A stretch of DNA of 64,000 nt from Nitrosopumilus sp. Lineage in GTDB: Archaea; Thermoproteota; Nitrososphaeria; Nitrososphaerales; Nitrosopumilaceae. The stretch's first letter is position 1, and each line of letters starts with the position of its first letter. The stretch spans positions 736,001 through 800,000 of the forward strand of contig OZ244651.1 in the NCBI GenBank assembly GCA_965218695.1, written 5' to 3'. Shown piece after piece: positions 26,538-34,103 of the stretch. A model generated the notes under the pieces. The model did no database searches and was not told the origin of the DNA. It was given only the letters and a program-made list of their open reading frames with translations. Both the position numbers and the translations under genes were made by a program.

Positions 26538-28244
26538 CTACCTGATCTCCGGCCGCCTGCCAATCCTAGACAGAATCCAGTCTATCTGCCTCTGCATGGC
26601 CTCTATTTTTTTGTCATACGTGCCAAGCAGCGCGTCATCCCTGTAGGAGATGGCCTGCCTGCGTGCAAGTTCCTCCATCAGGCTCTTTATCTCGGCGTCC
26701 ATCTCGCCGAGCCTGGCCTCTGAGCCAACGGGACTCTCGCCGCCCAGCATGCTCTCCGTCTTGCTTATGACGTTGATCTTGCCGGATGCCTTTGCGTACT
26801 CCCGGCGCAGCGTATCGGGATACATGGCAGGCTTTTCATAGGAGTCCCTTGGCTTGTGCCCGAGAATAAAGTCGGCCACATACTGCGCACACCCGCAGTC
26901 CATGAGCGTGGTCTTTAACAGATCACGAAGCTCGTGCGCGCGTATCTTGTACATTCTGTTTCCAATCTTCTTCTGCAGCCCGGCATTGACTGCCAGTTTG
27001 CCCATCTCCATCGATATCCAGATGCTTTTGAGGGGCCGGCCGGACCTGACAAACAGCGGACCGTCGGGATCAAAACCCCCACACTCCCCGATGCGCCAGT
27101 CCAGATAATTCTGTATGGCAGTAATGGCATCAGCATCCAGAAAGGTTATGAACCGCACCCCGGTCTTCATCCTGACGAGCCGGATTGGGACAGGGCACCG
27201 GGCCGTCTCCCATGCGGCGTGGTTGTTTGTCCCGAAGTATTTGGCAATCTGGGAATACGCCTCAAAGTTGAATCGGTCTGCAAGCGTGGACGAGTCCAGT
27301 CCGGCCTGAAACTTTACCAGCAGGACTGCCGTCAGCAGTGCAGACGGCTTTCCCTCAGTCAGCATCCGATGCCACTCGTCCAGCGTCAGTCCGCCCTCGT
27401 CTCTCATCTCCTGCGTGTCATGATCCCGCGGGTCGTACTTCATTCCAACAGGGGACTCGTTTTTTGCAAAATATGACATGATTGCAGAAAACGTGGTACT
27501 CATGCTGCTGGGACCGACATCTCTGTGCATCGGGTCTATGAGGTATGTCCTGATGATCCTTGTGACGTCCTTTTTGGATATGGCAGAATCATCAAACATG
27601 GTCAGGAGCTGCTCAACGTTTTCGAACCGGGTCTCAAGGATTCGCTCCTCCAGGGTGTGGTTCCCAACCCGGACGTTCTGCTTGATCGTAAAGGACCTGG
27701 CAGTCAGCCACCTGTCAAAACTGGCAAGACGGCGCACGTACATGGAGCGGGTGGTGTTGCTGCTGTTGTATGATGCAGACGCGTTCCTGTATCGGCTTCC
27801 ACGCAGCTGCCTTTCCCAGTATTGCACGCTTTGGAGGCAGTTTATGTGGGTTCTCTTTGGGGACATGGTCTTTTTGATTATGCCCCGTTTCTGCGCAATG
27901 CTGAGCGCCTGGTAGTGGTAGTTGATGAACGTCGCCTTTGAGCATGATTTGGGCCTGTCAGGCATGTCCCTTTGGATTATCTCGTCGGCAGAGAACCGCG
28001 TCCCGGTGTCTCCAAACCTGTAGACTATCTGTGTGAACCTTTTGGGCATCCTGTCCAGTCTGTCCGGCGTGGGATGCTGGCATACCTCGTATTGTGTGCC
28101 CCATTGTGGAGTCCCGATGGGCTGCTGCTGTTGCCCGTCTCCCGGGATTGGGGATTGCGGCGTGCGGGGTGTTGTCGGTTGCTCCATGATTGCCTTGCGC
28201 AGTTTCTGCGTTCCTTCGTGATGGGCCGTTTTGGCCTTTTTCAT
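26538..28244 (-). CDS. Tyrosine recombinase/integrase
   Basis: RMKTG, RAHELRDLLKT, FILGH, DSYEK. Sits at the boundary between ICE-like and core genes. Start uncertain. Confidence 0.85.
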   Translation of the reverse strand: MKKAKTAHHEGTQKLRKAIMEQPTTPRTPQSPIPGDGQQQQPIGTPQWGTQYEVCQHPTPDRLDRMPKRFTQIVYRFGDTGTRFSADEIIQRDMPDRPKSCSKATFINYHYQALSIAQKRGIIKKTMSPKRTHINCLQSVQYWERQLRGSRYRNASASYNSSNTTRSMYVRRLASFDRWLTARSFTIKQNVRVGNHTLEERILETRFENVEQLLTMFDDSAISKKDVTRIIRTYLIDPMHRDVGPSSMSTTFSAIMSYFAKNESPVGMKYDPRDHDTQEMRDEGGLTLDEWHRMLTEGKPSALLTAVLLVKFQAGLDSSTLADRFNFEAYSQIAKYFGTNNHAAWETARCPVPIRLVRMKTGVRFITFLDADAITAIQNYLDWRIGECGGFDPDGPLFVRSGRPLKSIWISMEMGKLAVNAGLQKKIGNRMYKIRAHELRDLLKTTLMDCGCAQYVADFILGHKPRDSYEKPAMYPDTLRREYAKASGKINVISKTESMLGGESPVGSEARLGEMDAEIKSLMEELARRQAISYRDDALLGTYDKKIEAMQRQIDWILSRIGRRPEIR

Positions 28245-28566
28245 TGTTCTTCCTCTCCATTTCCCTATATGAGGTCGTACTATGGAGCGCCATCGGCATG
28301 CGGCGGCAGGCGGATGGCATTTCCAAGGGATCTGGCACGCCGCGATGCAGAAAGCGCCTGTCATGGCGTCGTCTGTCCGCTCCCGATACCAGCATCATGC
28401 AAGGGACGGGCAACTTTTGGAATAATTCGCTTTGGGACCAAGCAGCAGACAGATTTCGTAACTGGTTAGGTTCACGACTGGATTTTGAGGTCAACAGACA
28501 GCGAACCTAACCTTTTACACAGATTTCTCCCTCAGACTTTATCTATTACCGGAACACCACACCATC

Positions 28567-28818
28567 ATGGAGAGTTGCGACCGGCGCGTCCGGGCATACA
28601 AGAACGGAAGGACCCTTGAGCAGTGCCGCGACATTGCCGAATCAATGAATCCCGGATTCAAGGCACAGATAGAGCAGAACGGCCGCGTCCTGTGGAGCGA
28701 GATACTTGCGCAGGCGGATCATGACGAGCTTGTCTACAAGTTTACGCTAAAGTTTCTCAGGCGCGACGGCTACGACATTGGCAACTACAAGACTCCCGAG
28801 GTAAAGCGGTTTGCCTAG
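28567..28818 (+). CDS. Conserved thaumarchaeal hypothetical protein
   Basis: DHDELVYKFTLKFLRRDGYDIGN; TTTATC TATA at about -28. Confidence 0.75.
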   Translation: MESCDRRVRAYKNGRTLEQCRDIAESMNPGFKAQIEQNGRVLWSEILAQADHDELVYKFTLKFLRRDGYDIGNYKTPEVKRFA

Positions 28819-29630
28819 TCGCATCTGCTGCTGCTGTTGCTCCTGCTCTGCTGCAGCCTTCTTGCCATGACGTATGGCGTGGCAAGCAGTATGGGGATTG
28901 ACACTGCTATGAAGAGCGTCTGCATCTGGGCCAGCGCAATGGAGAGCGCGATTCCGCTTGCAGTTCCCACAAAGACAGACAGGAACGTTCCGGCGCACGT
29001 GGGGCATGCGATGAAGAGTCCGGTCGCCGCGCCTACTGCGCCCATCCCCCTGCCCTTTTTGGATATCTGGTAGGCGTTTGCAGCGACTGCGGCGTTGAGC
29101 CCCACCAGATACGAGACTGTCACCTGCAGCACCAGGTTGACTGGAATGACCTGCAGCCCAACGTGCTCTGTGAGGTACAGTATTATCTTTGGCATGTATC
29201 CCGGGGCATCGCAGCACGGGGATACAAATCCGGATGGAATCTCAGCGCCGTAGTGGATTGCAAAGTTTACCTCCGGCTGGTACACGAGCGTTCCTGACGC
29301 AAGCGAGAAGAATATCCCATAGCATACAAACGTGGCGACAAAGATTTTGCGTGATCTGTGATTCCATGTAATCCGGGCAATGACTGAAGAGAGGTCCTGT
29401 CCCGTTCCGCCTGCCTTCCATGCGTGGTACCTGTACATGCCTACTGCAACTGCCCCAAGGGATGCGGCCAGTGCGACATAGAACCCGTATGCTATCCTCT
29501 GTATCGGCTCTATTGCCTCAGGCGTAAGGAGTTCCGAATCCTGGTACCTTCCATACAGCACAAACAGCACCATGATCGCCCCGAATCCCAAAAGTATCAT
29601 GGGCTTTCCTGTGCCCGGCGAGAGGTTCAT
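28815..29630 (-). CDS. Conserved membrane protein (CC and CPTC motifs)
   Basis: Multiple TM helices, GLFIACPTCAG. Confidence 0.75.
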   Translation of the reverse strand: MNLSPGTGKPMILLGFGAIMVLFVLYGRYQDSELLTPEAIEPIQRIAYGFYVALAASLGAVAVGMYRYHAWKAGGTGQDLSSVIARITWNHRSRKIFVATFVCYGIFFSLASGTLVYQPEVNFAIHYGAEIPSGFVSPCCDAPGYMPKIILYLTEHVGLQVIPVNLVLQVTVSYLVGLNAAVAANAYQISKKGRGMGAVGAATGLFIACPTCAGTFLSVFVGTASGIALSIALAQMQTLFIAVSIPILLATPYVMARRLQQSRSNSSSRCD

Positions 29631-29673
29631 GGTTTGTACACTGCTCCGGTCTGATTAAATCCTATCTTGCATG

Positions 29674-31011
29674 GGAACTGTAAAGTTACAGTGACCCACT
29701 CATGCCGGCACACGAACACGGATATGCGGATATCGTGTGTTCGGCCGCCCTTAAAAGCCGCGCCGGCCAACATAATACGTTAAACACACCGAATGCGTCT
29801 GGCAGTTCCACGACCGCCACGACGAGCTCAAAGAAACGTTTGAGAATTTCAGGCACGGCACCAACGAGGCCATCAGGCTCGGAATACTCCACAACATCAC
29901 GTCAACCAAAAAGTTCCAAGAACTCGCGTATCCTGGGATGAGGCGGAAAGGACACTATGCCACCCACACGCAGGAGGCAATCAAGACCGGAAAATCTCTG
30001 TTAAAAGCATGGCGTACCGCGCTCCGCAAGGCCGCAAGGAAGGCCAAGGACAAAAAGAAAGGCAACGCCAAGACAAGAAAATCCAACCCTGCCAAGAAGC
30101 CCAAAAAAACCACGCGGCCGTACGTCAGAAAAGACGTGCTCAAGATAAACAACCAGAACTACAAGATCATTGACGGTTCCATTGTTATTCCCGCGATGCT
30201 CGGAGACCATGTCCGAATCAGGCTCGCATCCTACGTGTCAGAGAAGATCCAAGGTGGAAAACTTGGCGGCATCACGCTTACCAAGGACAGGCTGATCGTG
30301 TCATATTCGGAGACAGTCGAACAAGCAGTCCCAGACGGATGGCTCGGAATGGACCTGAATTTGGACAACATCACCACGTATGACAGCCAATGCAACGTAA
30401 AAGTCATGGACATTGCCAAAGTCAGGCATATCAGGGAGAAATGCAGGGGTAAAGTCAGTCGTTTCAAGCGGAATGACCACCGTGTAAGGAAGAAGATTGC
30501 CTCAAAGTACGGCAAGAAAGAAAAAGACAGGACCACGCCCATCATGCACGCGGCGGCAGGCGAGATCGTCTCGCGGAACCGGGGAATCGTCATGGAAGAC
30601 CTGACGGACATGAAAGGCAAGTGGAAGAAGGGTTGCGGGACGTCAAAAAAGACCAGAACCAAACTGAACAGTTGGGGATATCATATTTTGCAATTCATGG
30701 TTGAATACAAGGCTAGAAGGCTCGGCCTTCCGACCAAGAAAATATCGGCGGCAGGCACGTCATCAAGGTGCGCGGAATGTGGAGGTAAGATGAACCCCGA
30801 AGCGCACCGCATGGTAACGTGCACACGCTGCCACGTGTCCATAGACAGGGACAAGAATGCAGGTAAAAACATACTTGCACGTGGGCTGTGGTTCGGCCCA
30901 GTCGGGTCCGCAGATGAAGCGATGGTGAGGGCTAGATCCGGGAAGCCGGATTCGAATACTTCAGTCGATGCGGATCAGTCAAGTCGCGGGTCACCGTAAC
31001 TTTACAGAACC
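29674..31011 (+). mobile_element. Non-autonomous TIR element carrying tnpB
   Basis: TIRs GGAACTGTAAAGTTACAGTGACCC and reverse complement GGTTCTGTAAAGTTACGGTGACCC (21/24); 8-bp TSD CTTGCATG (29666-29673, 31012-31019). Confidence 0.9.
29776..30999 (+). CDS. tnpB: RNA-guided endonuclease TnpB
   Basis: RuvC I GMDLN, RuvC II VMEDL, Zn finger TSSRCAEC..CTRC, RuvC III DRDKNAGKNI. Frame is open from 29776; first ATG is at 29938. Confidence 0.92.
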   Translation, partial: YVKHTECVWQFHDRHDELKETFENFRHGTNEAIRLGILHNITSTKKFQELAYPGMRRKGHYATHTQEAIKTGKSLLKAWRTALRKAARKAKDKKKGNAKTRKSNPAKKPKKTTRPYVRKDVLKINNQNYKIIDGSIVIPAMLGDHVRIRLASYVSEKIQGGKLGGITLTKDRLIVSYSETVEQAVPDGWLGMDLNLDNITTYDSQCNVKVMDIAKVRHIREKCRGKVSRFKRNDHRVRKKIASKYGKKEKDRTTPIMHAAAGEIVSRNRGIVMEDLTDMKGKWKKGCGTSKKTRTKLNSWGYHILQFMVEYKARRLGLPTKKISAAGTSSRCAECGGKMNPEAHRMVTCTRCHVSIDRDKNAGKNILARGLWFGPVGSADEAMVRARSGKPDSNTSVDADQSSRGSP

Positions 31012-31024
31012 CTTGCATGACTCC

Positions 31025-32896
31025 TCAGCTCAGCCGCGGGACAAAGATGTAGATGATTGCAATGATCTCCAGCCTCCCAAAGATCATCAGGAATCCCAGG
31101 TATATCTTGGTTGCCGGATCCGTCTCCGAGTCGATGACTCCTGCCGAGAGTCCGCCCGTGGTGATGACCCCCACTGCCTCAAGGAACGCGTCCTGGTACG
31201 GCACGTCCCCTATGGCTGCAAGGTGTGCCCCCGTGACTGCCGAGATTATCAGAAAGAGCCCCAGTATGATGCTGCTGGATATGATCTCCTTTCTTGTCTG
31301 GTCATCAAGGCTGCTCCATCCGGATTTCGTAAGCACCCTGACTGCATCCCTAAAATGAAAGAGCCTGAATATCTTCAGTCCCCCGGCAGTGGAGAACCCG
31401 CAGCCTCCTATAATCATGAGGGTGACAAGTATCGACTGCGCCGACCCCCCCAGTCCTGCAAGGCTCTCCAACTGCAGGCCTGCAGTGGTGCTTGCAGATA
31501 CTGTTAGAAACGCGCCGTTCAGCGGGTCGGTGCCGGAGATGGCTATGAACAGGAGCAGTGCGCCGCACAGTATTGCAAAGTACGTCAGGACCTCCTTGCC
31601 AAGTTTTGGGGCAAGGAACTTTTTTCTTACAAATGCATAGTGGAATGTAAACGGCAGTGCGCCCAGGATCATCGCACCCATCAGCACCACGTACTCCTGC
31701 CACAGCAGGCCGTCAAGGATCGTCGATGACGGGACAAACCCCCCGGTGGCAAGCGTGCTCATTGCCAGCGAAAAGTAGTCAAGAAGGTCTCCCCTGCCAA
31801 GTACAAACAGCAAAAGTGCCACTATCACTATGTAAAGGGCAAAGATGACCGTGATGGTAAGGAAGAGCTCCTTCATGTGAAGCGTCTTTCCGGATATGAA
31901 CCCGCGCATGGACTGCAGCTTGGACTCGGGATAAAACGCAGTGATTACCAGGTATATGAAACTCATGCCCCCGACTAGCTGCGTGTAACTTCGATAGAAG
32001 GTAAAGCTCTGTTGGAGTTCCTCCGGATTCTCAAAGAGCGATATTCCTCCGGTGGTAAACCCTGCAGCGCTTGAAAAGAACGCGTTTCCAAACGTCTCCA
32101 CGGTGGTGGCGTCGTCGGGAAAGACGTACAGGTACGGCACGGTTCCAAAAAGCGACAGAAGAAAGAGGCTTGCAAAGACCAGGATGGATGCCTGCTGCAG
32201 GTTCAGGCTTGACTTTTCGCCATACGAGTTCAGAAAGAATCCCGTGACAAGCAAGAGTACAGTGGTCAGGTATATTCCGGCGGCAATGGTGGTATCCTCA
32301 AGCAGGGTTGCGACGATTGCAGGAACGAGCAGCAGGACGCCTGCAAACTGCAGCACAAAGCCAAGGTTGCCAAGCACCGCCTTGACCGGGGGGCTCAGGA
32401 GCCTTGGCGGGATTCCAATTGCATCCCTTATAGCATTTGCAATGGTTGCCTCAAAGATCATCCCGACGATCTCGTTCTTCTTTGAGAGGACCGGCAGTTT
32501 TTTGATATTGTTCTCCTTCATCTTGTCCAGTGCATCCTTGAGTGTGGATTTTTCATCGATTGTGATTAGCGGGGTGCTCATGAGCTCCTGCAGGACGGTG
32601 GTCTCGGCATAGACTGTCGCGTCGCTCACCTTGTTGAGGATGTCCTCGTCGGTGACGATTCCAATGGGTGTGCCCTGCTTGTCTGTGACTATGATGTCGT
32701 CCCTTTCATAACTGCCCAGCAGCCTGGTAGCCGTCCTTGTCAGCGTCCCCGAGGGCAACTTTAGTACGTCCTTGTCCATGTACTCCCTCACATGCTTGTT
32801 TCGGACATACGATATGGCCCGTTCCGGATTTGTAGACAACAGGGTATTCACAGTCGCGGATTTTAAATAATTTTGGGTTGGGGTGGCGTTGTCCAA
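31025..32896 (-). CDS. trkH: CBS-domain TrkH-family K+ uptake protein; native 5' end displaced by an IS
   Basis: Tandem CBS domains, pore motifs FTTGG, LATGGF, STTAG, ITTGG, and FGRLEI. Confidence 0.9.
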   Translation of the reverse strand: MDNATPTQNYLKSATVNTLLSTNPERAISYVRNKHVREYMDKDVLKLPSGTLTRTATRLLGSYERDDIIVTDKQGTPIGIVTDEDILNKVSDATVYAETTVLQELMSTPLITIDEKSTLKDALDKMKENNIKKLPVLSKKNEIVGMIFEATIANAIRDAIGIPPRLLSPPVKAVLGNLGFVLQFAGVLLLVPAIVATLLEDTTIAAGIYLTTVLLLVTGFFLNSYGEKSSLNLQQASILVFASLFLLSLFGTVPYLYVFPDDATTVETFGNAFFSSAAGFTTGGISLFENPEELQQSFTFYRSYTQLVGGMSFIYLVITAFYPESKLQSMRGFISGKTLHMKELFLTITVIFALYIVIVALLLFVLGRGDLLDYFSLAMSTLATGGFVPSSTILDGLLWQEYVVLMGAMILGALPFTFHYAFVRKKFLAPKLGKEVLTYFAILCGALLLFIAISGTDPLNGAFLTVSASTTAGLQLESLAGLGGSAQSILVTLMIIGGCGFSTAGGLKIFRLFHFRDAVRVLTKSGWSSLDDQTRKEIISSSIILGLFLIISAVTGAHLAAIGDVPYQDAFLEAVGVITTGGLSAGVIDSETDPATKIYLGFLMIFGRLEIIAIIYIFVPRLS

Positions 32897-34103
32897 ATCT
32901 TAGTTCTACAGACCCGTTTGCTGTCCATTTACACGTGCTTTATTGGTTCTGATTCTGCCAATTTGATGGAATTTTCCTGCGGCCGGAGCATGACGGGCGC
33001 ATTTTGTGTCAAAACCGTACCGTGGCGCATAGCACGCGCTAGGCACACGACGCGTATTTTTTGCACCATTCTGTCACGACAGCAGGTTGTAGCAGACGCA
33101 CCTGAGCAGCAGCTGCAGCCTTTGGGCCGGCAGCATCTTGGCGCGGACCACGGCAGTGAACCTGCACTTGAACGACGAGAACACCGATTCCACTATGCTG
33201 CGCCTGTGGTACGTCCTTTCAAACTCTTCGGGGTTGTTTTCCTGCCACCTGATCATCTCCGCCCTCGGACCGAATCCGCGCGCGACGTGATTCTTGCGGG
33301 TGCAGATCACGGGCTTCCTGCCCGAGTCGCGGATCATCTCGTAGTTCTTGACCGCGTCATACCCTGCATCAAGCATCACGCACCCTGTGCCGTCCGGAAC
33401 ATTCCCGAACATCTCCCGGAACACCGGCGAGTCGTGTGTGCGCCCCCTGGTGACTGCGCACGAGACGATCTTCCTTCCCCCGGCGTCAACTACCACGTGC
33501 AGCTTGACGAATTCGCGCCTGGAGATGAGCCCCCTCTTGGCGTCCTCCCAGTCTGCGTACTGGTTTATGGCGATCCCCGTGGAGTCGCCCAGAAGGGAGC
33601 CGCGCGCGTGGGATCCTGCCTGCCTTTCAATTATTTCGTGCAGCCCGTCGTAACCTGATATTATGGTGGCCGCATGGTGCAGGCAGGATTTTGATGGAAC
33701 GGTTTTTAATCCGTACATGCGCAGTGTTCCCTGATGTGTCTGCAGATACGAGACATGTCTACGGTATGAATGGCAGCGGAACTCCCGGTCTGCAAGGCAT
33801 ACCATGTATGGGATCATGCGCGCCATGCCGGGGACGGCAGGCGAACAGATCTCAGACAGCAGGGCGGCGAGGGCCTTGATTCGTAATCTCGTTACGCGGC
33901 CCTCACCCCTTCTCCTCGTCTCGTATTCCTTGTAGTATCCGGCAGGACGTTCCCATTTCTTATCCTCGACACTCTTGCTTTTGCAGCGTTTCTTGCCTTT
34001 GCCGTATTTCGTGTTTGTATCGCGTTTTTTGTTCATTAAGCGGCGCGCGATCCGCGATCTTTAAGCTTTTCGTCGATTTTCTACCCCGGATTTGGACAAC
34101 GCC
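32885..34103 (-). mobile_element. IS5-like insertion sequence in the 5' end of trkH
   Basis: IR GGCGTTGTCCAAATC; 9-bp TSD GGTTGGGGT (32876-32884, 34104-34112). Confidence 0.93.
33074..34036 (-). CDS. IS5-like DDE transposase
   Basis: GDSTG, FVKLHVVVD, LDAGYD, YHRRSIVESVFS. Confidence 0.92.
   Translation of the reverse strand: MNKKRDTNTKYGKGKKRCKSKSVEDKKWERPAGYYKEYETRRRGEGRVTRLRIKALAALLSEICSPAVPGMARMIPYMVCLADREFRCHSYRRHVSYLQTHQGTLRMYGLKTVPSKSCLHHAATIISGYDGLHEIIERQAGSHARGSLLGDSTGIAINQYADWEDAKRGLISRREFVKLHVVVDAGGRKIVSCAVTRGRTHDSPVFREMFGNVPDGTGCVMLDAGYDAVKNYEMIRDSGRKPVICTRKNHVARGFGPRAEMIRWQENNPEEFERTYHRRSIVESVFSSFKCRFTAVVRAKMLPAQRLQLLLRCVCYNLLS

Follow-up and report, generated by a model that had tools for sequence, protein, structure and literature searches.

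TnpB is thought to benefit insertion sequences (IS) of the IS200/IS605 and IS607 kinds by re-cutting the scarless empty site. In the IS200/IS605 paradigm, the flank next to the right end of the element supplies the guide of the nuclease (also reviewed in PMC13565253). According to the portion of that 2026 review considered here, IS200/IS605 elements have no terminal inverted repeats (TIRs), make no target-site duplication (TSD) and insert 3' of a fixed tetra- or pentanucleotide, and the IS1341 group comprises those that carry only tnpB and are moved in trans by the Y1 transposase TnpA (PMC13565253). Here, we describe a 1338-bp element found in a 64,000-nucleotide stretch, referred to below as the window, of the genome of the archaeon Nitrosopumilus sp. 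(assembly GCA_965218695.1, contig OZ244651.1, positions 736,001 to 800,000). Like the IS1341 group, it is about 1.3 kb long, has tnpB as its sole gene, and carries a predicted structured RNA that overlaps the tnpB 3' end and reaches the right end, with the flank as presumptive guide; unlike that group, it has TIRs and a variable 8-bp TSD. We conclude, with a probability of roughly 0.78, that it belongs to an archaeal group of IS6-like (IS6/IS26 sensu lato) transposons and is non-autonomous, with tnpB and its predicted omegaRNA as cargo. The evidence comprises the anatomy of the element, its mobility, an end type common to tnpB-only elements, miniature inverted-repeat transposable elements (MITEs) and elements that encode a transposase, the purifying selection acting on tnpB, and the covariation seen in the RNA.

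TnpB on prokaryotic DDE transposons is already known. In the main text of their study, Altae-Tran et al. (2023) place prokaryotic TnpBs on inverted-repeat DDE transposons, in branches DDE-1 to DDE-6, together with solo TnpBs that share these ends and for which they infer mobilization in trans, the tnpB 3' end lying no more than 250 bp from the transposon end (PMC10691335). The window element shares the inverted-repeat transposon context, the gene 3' end near the transposon end and the presumed mobilization in trans, but differs in that their transposase adjoins tnpB, whereas here one lies beside tnpB at 0 of 80 loci. The families named for the DDE branches are IS630 in that main text (PMC10691335) and ISL2, IS630 and IS1031 in the portion of the 2026 review considered (PMC13565253); IS6 is not among them. 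IS6 as a carrier of TnpB was not found in the literature searched: the main text of PMC10691335 contains "IS6" only within IS605, IS607, IS608 and IS630, and the publications matching TnpB with "IS6 family" were, by title and abstract, on other topics. In the portion of the IS6 review considered, just one member is said to carry a passenger gene, and TnpB occurs 0 times (PMC7986276). The link to IS6 was thus not found in print, and the TnpB clade of the window may sit unlabelled in the 2023 tree. Fanzor offers a further parallel as a TnpB-family nuclease on transposons with TIRs and TSDs, as outlined in the parts of PMC3627910 and PMC13565253 considered, but it is eukaryotic or viral, with larger proteins and other transposon superfamilies.

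The IS6 family signature, as given in the same portion of its review, consists of 8-bp repeats, tips with a G dinucleotide and a cTGTt motif (PMC7986276). IS6/IS26 elements, including the long zinc-finger ISCpe7 group, archaeal clades and MITEs, resemble the window element in their 8-bp TSD, short GG-tipped TIRs and CTGT, to judge from the parts of PMC7986276 and PMC6807381 considered. They also resemble it in that autonomous elements sharing its TIRs encode a transposase of the DDE_Tnp_IS240 type and in that MITEs exist; the window element differs in that it lacks a transposase and carries tnpB and a predicted guide RNA, and its partner transposases, of about 380 aa, are borderline to the NCBIfam IS6 model.

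The element occupies window positions 29674-31011, and the 8-bp direct repeat CTTGCATG stands on both sides. We refer to it as copy A, two further full copies of the genome being B and C. The features at the locus are as follows.

29666-29673, no strand: left copy of the 8-bp TSD CTTGCATG, read from the sequence and from the empty-site joint.
29674-29697, plus strand: left TIR GGAACTGTAAAGTTACAGTGACCC, IS6-type (GG tip, CTGT), read from the sequence, its motif compared with the portion of PMC7986276 considered.
29750-29757, plus strand: TATA-like box CTTAAAAG, about 26 nt 5' of the tnpB start position, read from the sequence and kept in copies A, B and C.
29779-30999, plus strand: tnpB reading frame of 406 codons and a stop, with GTT at the start, from the open reading frame (ORF) and the Pfam, NCBIfam and PDB matches.
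30881-31005, plus strand: predicted omegaRNA scaffold, from the single-sequence fold and RNAalifold.
30988-31011, minus strand: right TIR, inward reading GGTTCTGTAAAGTTACGGTGACCC, which includes the tnpB stop, read from the sequence.
31012-31019, no strand: right copy of the duplication CTTGCATG, read from the sequence, which with the next ~12 nt (to ~31031) would form the presumptive omegaRNA guide.
29628-29665, minus strand: beginning of the neighboring host gene 28815-29630, with its start codon at 29630-29628 and a TATA-like box, ATTTAAT, at 29653-29659, from which copy A is 5 nt away.

The two TIR arms (GGAACTGTAAAGTTACAGTGACCC and GGTTCTGTAAAGTTACGGTGACCC) agree at 21 of 24 positions and form the longest inverted repeat of the region (rank I1 in the repeat search), and the TIR is partly self-palindromic (CTGTAA/TTACAG). 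The TAA stop of tnpB, at 30997-30999, falls within the right arm. On re-reading the sequence, we recovered every part of this anatomy that the initial annotation had described, namely the tnpB-only 1338-bp unit, the 24-nt TIRs, the perfect 8-bp TSD and the stop codon inside the right TIR. The box CTTAAAAG is a putative promoter for a leaderless tnpB mRNA.

Mobility is directly visible in an unoccupied form of the locus. Among public contigs aligned to window positions 28900-31800, those of runs X2 and X6 connect 29665 straight to 31012, skipping 1346 bp; eight letters fit either side, so that a single CTTGCATG remains, as the initial annotation would have predicted for an empty site. The flanks of these contigs are ~94% identical to the window over sides of 86 and 255 letters. 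In run X2, the empty form has a depth of 27.8, versus 2.7 for the contig across the left junction of the filled form, and the filled form is present in runs X1 and X3.

The genome itself (G000, with the window at C1:736001-800000) spans 2.63 Mb in 9 contigs, is 99.99% complete and has a GC content of 52.8%. It holds three full copies of the tnpB element. Copy B is 97% identical to A, has a 2-bp deletion in the left repeat, and its flanks TGAAAAGG and TGGAATGG match at 6 of 8 positions. Copy C, 85% identical to A, is bounded by a perfect duplication, TTTTGATA, unlike that of A, and has a frameshift near the zinc finger. Two right-end remnants of 183 bp each lie inside a 2.3-kb composite IS of another family.

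The same anatomy recurs in the same archaeal family and in metagenomes, where TnpB homologues of 28-47% identity lie in elements of ~1.2-1.3 kb that terminate in GGTTCTGTCAAGTT.. or GGTTCTGTTAACTT.. and are flanked by 8-bp duplications. At the nine genome loci with both ends, the TSD is perfect in seven (one of them from the unpublished genome G231), matches at 7/8 in one and at 3/8 in another. For the 17 metagenome loci with a TIR match of at least 17/22, it is perfect in 10, 7/8 in one and 4/8 or lower in six; perfect TSDs in metagenomes number 12 in total, two of them with weaker TIRs. Thus, copy C, the relatives and the metagenome elements repeat the TIR and 8-bp TSD arrangement that the initial annotation had wanted looked for in other copies. 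Because the empty site, copy C with its different perfect TSD and the relatives all agree, the window feature is confirmed as a real mobile insertion, beyond chance.

These data bear on a rival explanation, in which a Y1 transposase would move what is an ordinary tnpB element of the IS200/IS605 kind (IS1341 group), its repeats being subterminal hairpins and its 8-mer a fixed target or cleavage sequence. Elements of ~1.3 kb with tnpB alone are indeed typical of that group in the portion of the review considered (PMC13565253), and the TIR is partly palindromic. However, the 8-mer varies: the 21 tnpB elements with perfect 8-bp duplications, from the own genome, relatives and metagenomes, display 21 different 8-mers. 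Moreover, the empty site holds exactly one 8-mer, and the ends are mutually inverted copies rather than asymmetric. The traits that define IS200/IS605 (no TIR, no TSD, asymmetric hairpins, a fixed tetra- or pentanucleotide) are replaced here by a TIR matching at 21/24 and variable 8-bp TSDs, an anatomy that neither Y1 (IS200/IS605) nor serine (IS607) transposition can produce, and we regard this explanation as scarcely credible.

The initial annotation had proposed that an IS1595-family (ISXO2-like) DDE transposase moves the element in trans. IS1595 elements share the DDE enzyme and give 8-bp duplications, and some begin with GG; in addition, of 251 genomes from the same archaeal family, 30 contain a match to DDE_Tnp_IS1595 (PF12762). 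Against this stand 0 matches to PF12762 in the own genome and the lack of any tnpB-type TIR, within 3 mismatches, at the 9 examined IS1595 loci of relatives. Three of these loci have a clear inverted-repeat pair, and their TIRs (GGGGAATTATCG.., GGGGGAATTATCG.. and AGGTGATTATCAAT..) are unlike those of the tnpB element. Since the TIR type of the tnpB element instead surrounds IS6-like transposases, as described below, we rejected IS1595 as the partner and consider its involvement very improbable. The initial interpretation was therefore right in kind, in that a non-autonomous, DDE-moved element with an RNA-guided nuclease remains the best description, and wrong in family, the element being IS6-like.

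The tips GGTTCTGT..AAGTT and the 8-bp duplication of the window element fit the IS6/IS26 signature. Direct target repeats of 8 bp flank the tnpB elements, and the TIRs carry the IS6 features (GGTTCTGTAAAGTT in the window element, GGTTCTGTCAAGTT or GGTTCTGTTAACTT in relatives), although the caaa block is matched approximately only. The window element itself encodes no IS6-type DDE transposase. Among the 72 metagenomic tnpB relatives with enough downstream DNA, an IS6-type tip lies within 160 nt past the gene end in 54, compared with 3 of 72 in the reverse-strand control.

A 16-mer scan of public genomes returned at least 121 loci, most of them in bacterial records and taken as chance matches; 24 archaeal loci, chosen by record title, were analyzed. 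Among the matches listed are two MITEs, L087 (497 bp) and L134 (344 bp), both ending in this TIR type next to 8-bp TSDs, and a 1328-bp tnpB element, L157. Locus L136, in a metagenome-assembled genome of Nitrosarchaeum, is a 3980-bp element with this TIR type, the TSD CCCAAGCG and a 386-aa protein matching PF13610 (DDE_Tnp_IS240). In L141 (Methanocrinis), the same end type is followed by a 384-aa homologue; its second end was not found on the contig, which stops there. Transposase genes or remnants stand beside such TIRs in L141, L055, L125, L053/L123 and L060. The own genome holds an IS of 2699 bp at C1:1109206-1111904, with ends GGTTCTGTGTAATCTTCGGGAGGTA (25/26), the perfect TSD CTGTGGCA and an intact 379-aa transposase, encoded at C1:1109864-1111000, that is 44% identical to that of L136. 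Across these TIR-sharing transposases, PF13610 scores 62-73 bits, and "IS6 family transposase" (NF033587) is the top NCBIfam match for all five tested, L141 scoring 132.6 against a cut-off of 125. Thus, autonomous elements with the same TIR type, whose existence the initial annotation had anticipated, were found, but their transposase is IS6-like and not of the ISXO2/IS1595 kind.

No IS6-like transposase was found in the flanks of the tnpB elements at 80 metagenome loci (tblastn, up to 4 kb of flank). We therefore take the tnpB elements as non-autonomous relatives of IS6-like transposons, and this absence fits mobilization in trans. That a DDE transposase acts in trans, as the initial annotation had held, is most likely given the TIR and TSD anatomy and tnpB standing alone in the element.

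Other searches for this end type were less productive. In genome G105, the TIR-like pairs L058 and L059 have no matching duplications, and their repeats extend past the TIRs; the ORFs beside solo TIR-like sites in G105, G366 and G176 include no transposase by Pfam. We discarded a search for the pattern GGNNCTGTMAAGTYA over the 251 genomes as TIR evidence, as it was confounded by the single-copy sequence GGTTCTGTAAAGTCA, which at the one site inspected (L057) is part of a conserved 504-aa ORF. This 15-mer occurs once per genome in many genomes of the family and is a chance look-alike of the transposon tip that inflates pattern searches.

Regarding the cargo, the only long frame in the element (29776-30999) encodes TnpB. 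Its product matches PF07282 in Pfam at 57.4 bits (cut-off 26.3) and belongs to the NCBIfam family guided_TnpB (NF040570) at 120.8 bits (cut-off 100), and TnpB/Cas12f chains in PDB match it as well. Residues D193, E274, D357/D359 and C332/C335/C349/C352 (P0001 numbering) do not vary across an alignment of 10 homologues with 28-97% identity to P0001; by the shape of the motifs, we take these columns to be the RuvC D-E-D and C4 zinc-finger motifs. Copies A and B differ at 33 nt and 12 aa, with a ratio of nonsynonymous to synonymous substitution rates (dN/dS) of 0.21, and tnpB is under purifying selection between them.

The 3' end of the gene is predicted to form a structured RNA. Copies A and C diverge by ~15% overall and show almost no differences in the last ~180 nt; A and B have 0 differences in the last ~100 nt of tnpB. 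RNAalifold applied to the 3' ends of 15 diverse copies yields a consensus of 17 pairs, 11 of them with compensatory changes. Paired cells amount to 95.7%, versus 75.4% in column shuffles, and 0 of 500 shuffles reach any of five measures; a control with partners slid by 1-3 columns gives 28-37% pairing. In the single-sequence fold of copy A, the helices are a hairpin at 30881-30899, a long-range pairing of 30905-30912 with 30969-30976, and a terminal hairpin at 30978-31005, which takes in the inner half of the right TIR and leaves AGAACC at the tip single-stranded. Rfam has no family, at E values up to 1, in 29600-31100. The model that emerges is a conserved RNA structure in the last ~125 nt that stops shortly before the right tip, an arrangement to be expected if it served as an omegaRNA with a guide starting at 31012, on the duplicated 8-mer; by analogy with the IS200/IS605 TnpB paradigm, this is where the guide is placed. 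The covariation thus supports, in silico, the idea put forward in the initial annotation that an omegaRNA runs through the right TIR and has a guide beginning with the TSD, the guide being presumptive.

Several observations weigh against the IS6-like assignment or against a working cargo. Matching duplications are missing in 6 of the 17 well-paired metagenome copies, which is compatible with replicative cointegrate transposition without arguing for it. Of the three best transposases, those of L136 (119.3) and of the own genome (116) fall slightly short of the NCBIfam IS6 cut-off of 125, and archaeal and long-transposase "IS6" elements have been argued not to be true family members (Harmer & Hall, in the part of PMC6807381 considered). 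None of the transposase-bearing elements in the own genome agrees with the tips of copies A, B and C past the terminal 8 nt (13/23 for the IS at C1:1109206-1111904, whose transposase is a candidate enzyme for them); an internal site of this IS matches the copy ends at 18/24. Other IS6-like families of the own genome make 9-bp duplications. The single-sequence fold of the RNA is unexceptional (z = -1.73). Finally, copy A has no intact translatable gene and copy C is frameshifted: at the start position 29779-29781, A reads GTT where B and C read GTG, and the first canonical in-frame start in A is the ATG at 29938, 53 codons downstream. Because of this change and the distance to the next start, copy A has probably lost translation of the full-length TnpB, and copy B, 97% identical to it, is the probable source of its protein. 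The earlier statement that the RuvC D/E/D residues and zinc finger are intact holds for the residues, which are present and invariant, and fails for the gene itself, which lacks its GTG start in copy A.

The target side was compared in 30 elements oriented by tnpB, following the suggestion that the 5' flanks be aligned for a target-adjacent motif (TAM). The alignment revealed a conserved one-sided motif, attributable either to a TAM or to a target preference of the transposase. Outside the left duplication, A/T occurs at -2 in 97% and at -3 in 90% of the elements; on the right side, A/T at +3 reaches 90%, mirroring -3, and at +2 only 43%. In clade II (GGTTCTGTTAAC-type and related ends), all 19 of 19 elements have T at -2 (background 0.31; binomial p 1.7e-10, in a post hoc test on clades defined by the analyst), and 3 of 19 conform at the mirrored position on the right. 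Within the clade of the own genome, TAT or TAC precedes the left duplication in 6 of 10 elements (A, B, C, G213a, G106a and L244), and TAT at 29663-29665 is the candidate TAM of copy A.

Part of this signal could come from promoters. In copies A and B, 5-6 nt separate the element from a TATA-like box, the ATG of a divergent host gene (ORFs of 271 and 324 aa) is 35-36 nt away, and the tnpB-less IS of the own genome has a similar promoter layout. A TATA-like hexamer occurs 3-9 nt beyond the left TSD in 9 of 30 elements, and on the right side in 4 of 30. We rejected a neighboring promoter as the whole account of the left-flank motif: it holds for A, B and the 9 of 30 overall and fails at GC-rich sites, where ATG or TTG precedes the duplication and no TATA box is present, yet T stands at -2. 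Among four tnpB-less elements, two have no T at -2 in either orientation.

A broader version of this explanation accepts the element as mobile in the way described but treats tnpB as inert, decaying cargo, the flank signal and orientation reflecting only insertion of the transposase next to promoters. It draws on the missing start codon of copy A, the frameshift of copy C, and the position of A and B just upstream of leaderless host genes, with the similar tnpB-less IS. It is difficult to reconcile with the low dN/dS between A and B, the invariance of catalytic residues across the homologues and the strong covariation in the RNA, and the hexamer is found on the left in fewer than a third of the elements, yet T at -2 is universal in clade II. 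We consider inert cargo unlikely.

We tentatively propose, at somewhat less than even odds, that a large archaeal TnpB clade shifted from Y1 or serine carriers to IS6-like DDE transposons while keeping its homing logic, the guide beginning at the TSD and the TAM being the 2-4 nt outside the left duplication (WTR in clade II, TAY in the clade of the own genome). The flank motif may alternatively reflect the transposase's own site preference. If the TAM proposal is true, TnpB would protect or spread only those insertions that land beside a TAM, which would account for the motif being one-sided, a feature not predicted if DDE target preference is symmetric, and would explain the persistence of a TAM under DDE target choice.

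The proposed mechanism can be outlined as follows. An IS6-like DDE transposase encoded elsewhere would bind the GGTTCTGT..AAGTT ends and make an 8-bp staggered cut that gives rise to the duplication; the candidate enzymes are those of ~380 aa with zinc-finger N-termini and a DDE_Tnp_IS240 match in Pfam. The TATA box near the left end would drive transcription of tnpB, the stretch of ~125 nt that closes the gene and extends to the right tip would fold as the omegaRNA scaffold, and read-through into the flank would produce a guide starting with the duplicated 8-mer. The unoccupied allele, composed of left flank, 8-mer and right flank, would match this guide and could be cut, so that either the element would tend to be copied into it or chromosomes with an empty site would tend to be lost. 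An allele already occupied would be spared, as the element tip ..AACC would sit in the TAM position.

In this organization, the nuclease-guide module known from IS200/IS605 and IS607 is combined with another chemistry (DDE, with an 8-bp duplication and probably replicative) and most likely relies on a transposase encoded elsewhere. Should the flank motif prove to be a TAM, these elements would provide a natural test of RNA-guided homing on a duplicated target and reveal how a TAM requirement is squared with the target choice of the transposase. The clade also offers compact archaeal TnpBs of ~400 aa with a defined predicted scaffold end and a candidate short TAM. For annotation, "IS605 OrfB" genes of archaea, ammonia oxidizers included, often do not represent IS605 elements.

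Further observations concern the IS6-like elements. The IS at C1:1109206-1111904 has ~10 AGGTTAT repeats, resembling an iteron array, upstream of its transposase gene, as well as a tRNA-like fragment and an extra internal end-like site, GGTTCTGTCGAGTTAATG, at 1109599. Its GC content is 39.7%, against 52.8% for the genome, and it is probably a recent import. A six-copy IS6-like family has ends GGTTCTCCTGCATCATCGGTTGG, 9-bp duplications and copies 99.8-99.9% identical; in one member (C1:1556793-1558418), the 9-bp duplication overlaps a right end of the tnpB type at its tip, ..GATAACTTAGCAGAACC. Ends abut in a similar way in L136, and insertion may target existing transposon ends. In L054 (3060-4070), from genome G105 of the same genus, an ORF of 337 aa that contains an HNH endonuclease domain stops 144 bp before an IS6-type right tip. 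Standing in the usual place of tnpB, it may represent an alternative nuclease cargo on the same kind of transposon.

The genome as a whole is rich in repeats, with 468 repeated intervals of at least 300 bp by self-BLAST, many of which resemble IS families with ~4-39 matching high-scoring segment pairs each. Among 29 repeat representatives checked for ends and duplications, one pair, with ends GTAAGAGGTC.., had an 8-bp duplication. Left of the tnpB element, at a distance of 1.3 kb, a 608-aa ORF (window 26538-28364) has weak tyrosine-integrase matches, to Phage_integr_3 and Phage_integrase, both below the cut-off. To its right, 1.9 kb away, window 32885-34103 is a separate IS of 1219 bp with ends GGCGTTGTCCAAATC.. 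and a 9-bp duplication, encoding a 320-aa DDE_Tnp_1 transposase on the minus strand (33074-34036). The 2.3-kb composite element that contains the 183-bp remnants occurs at C1:1734837-1737133 and C1:292230-296004, with GAGACATAATCCGTAATTAG ends and a 361-aa DDE transposase. Besides the remnant, it holds a 284-aa ORF ending in a CPCGSGKKYKKCC motif, which we take to be SEC-C-like, and in the second copy the gene for this ORF is interrupted by another IS with a 422-aa transposase.

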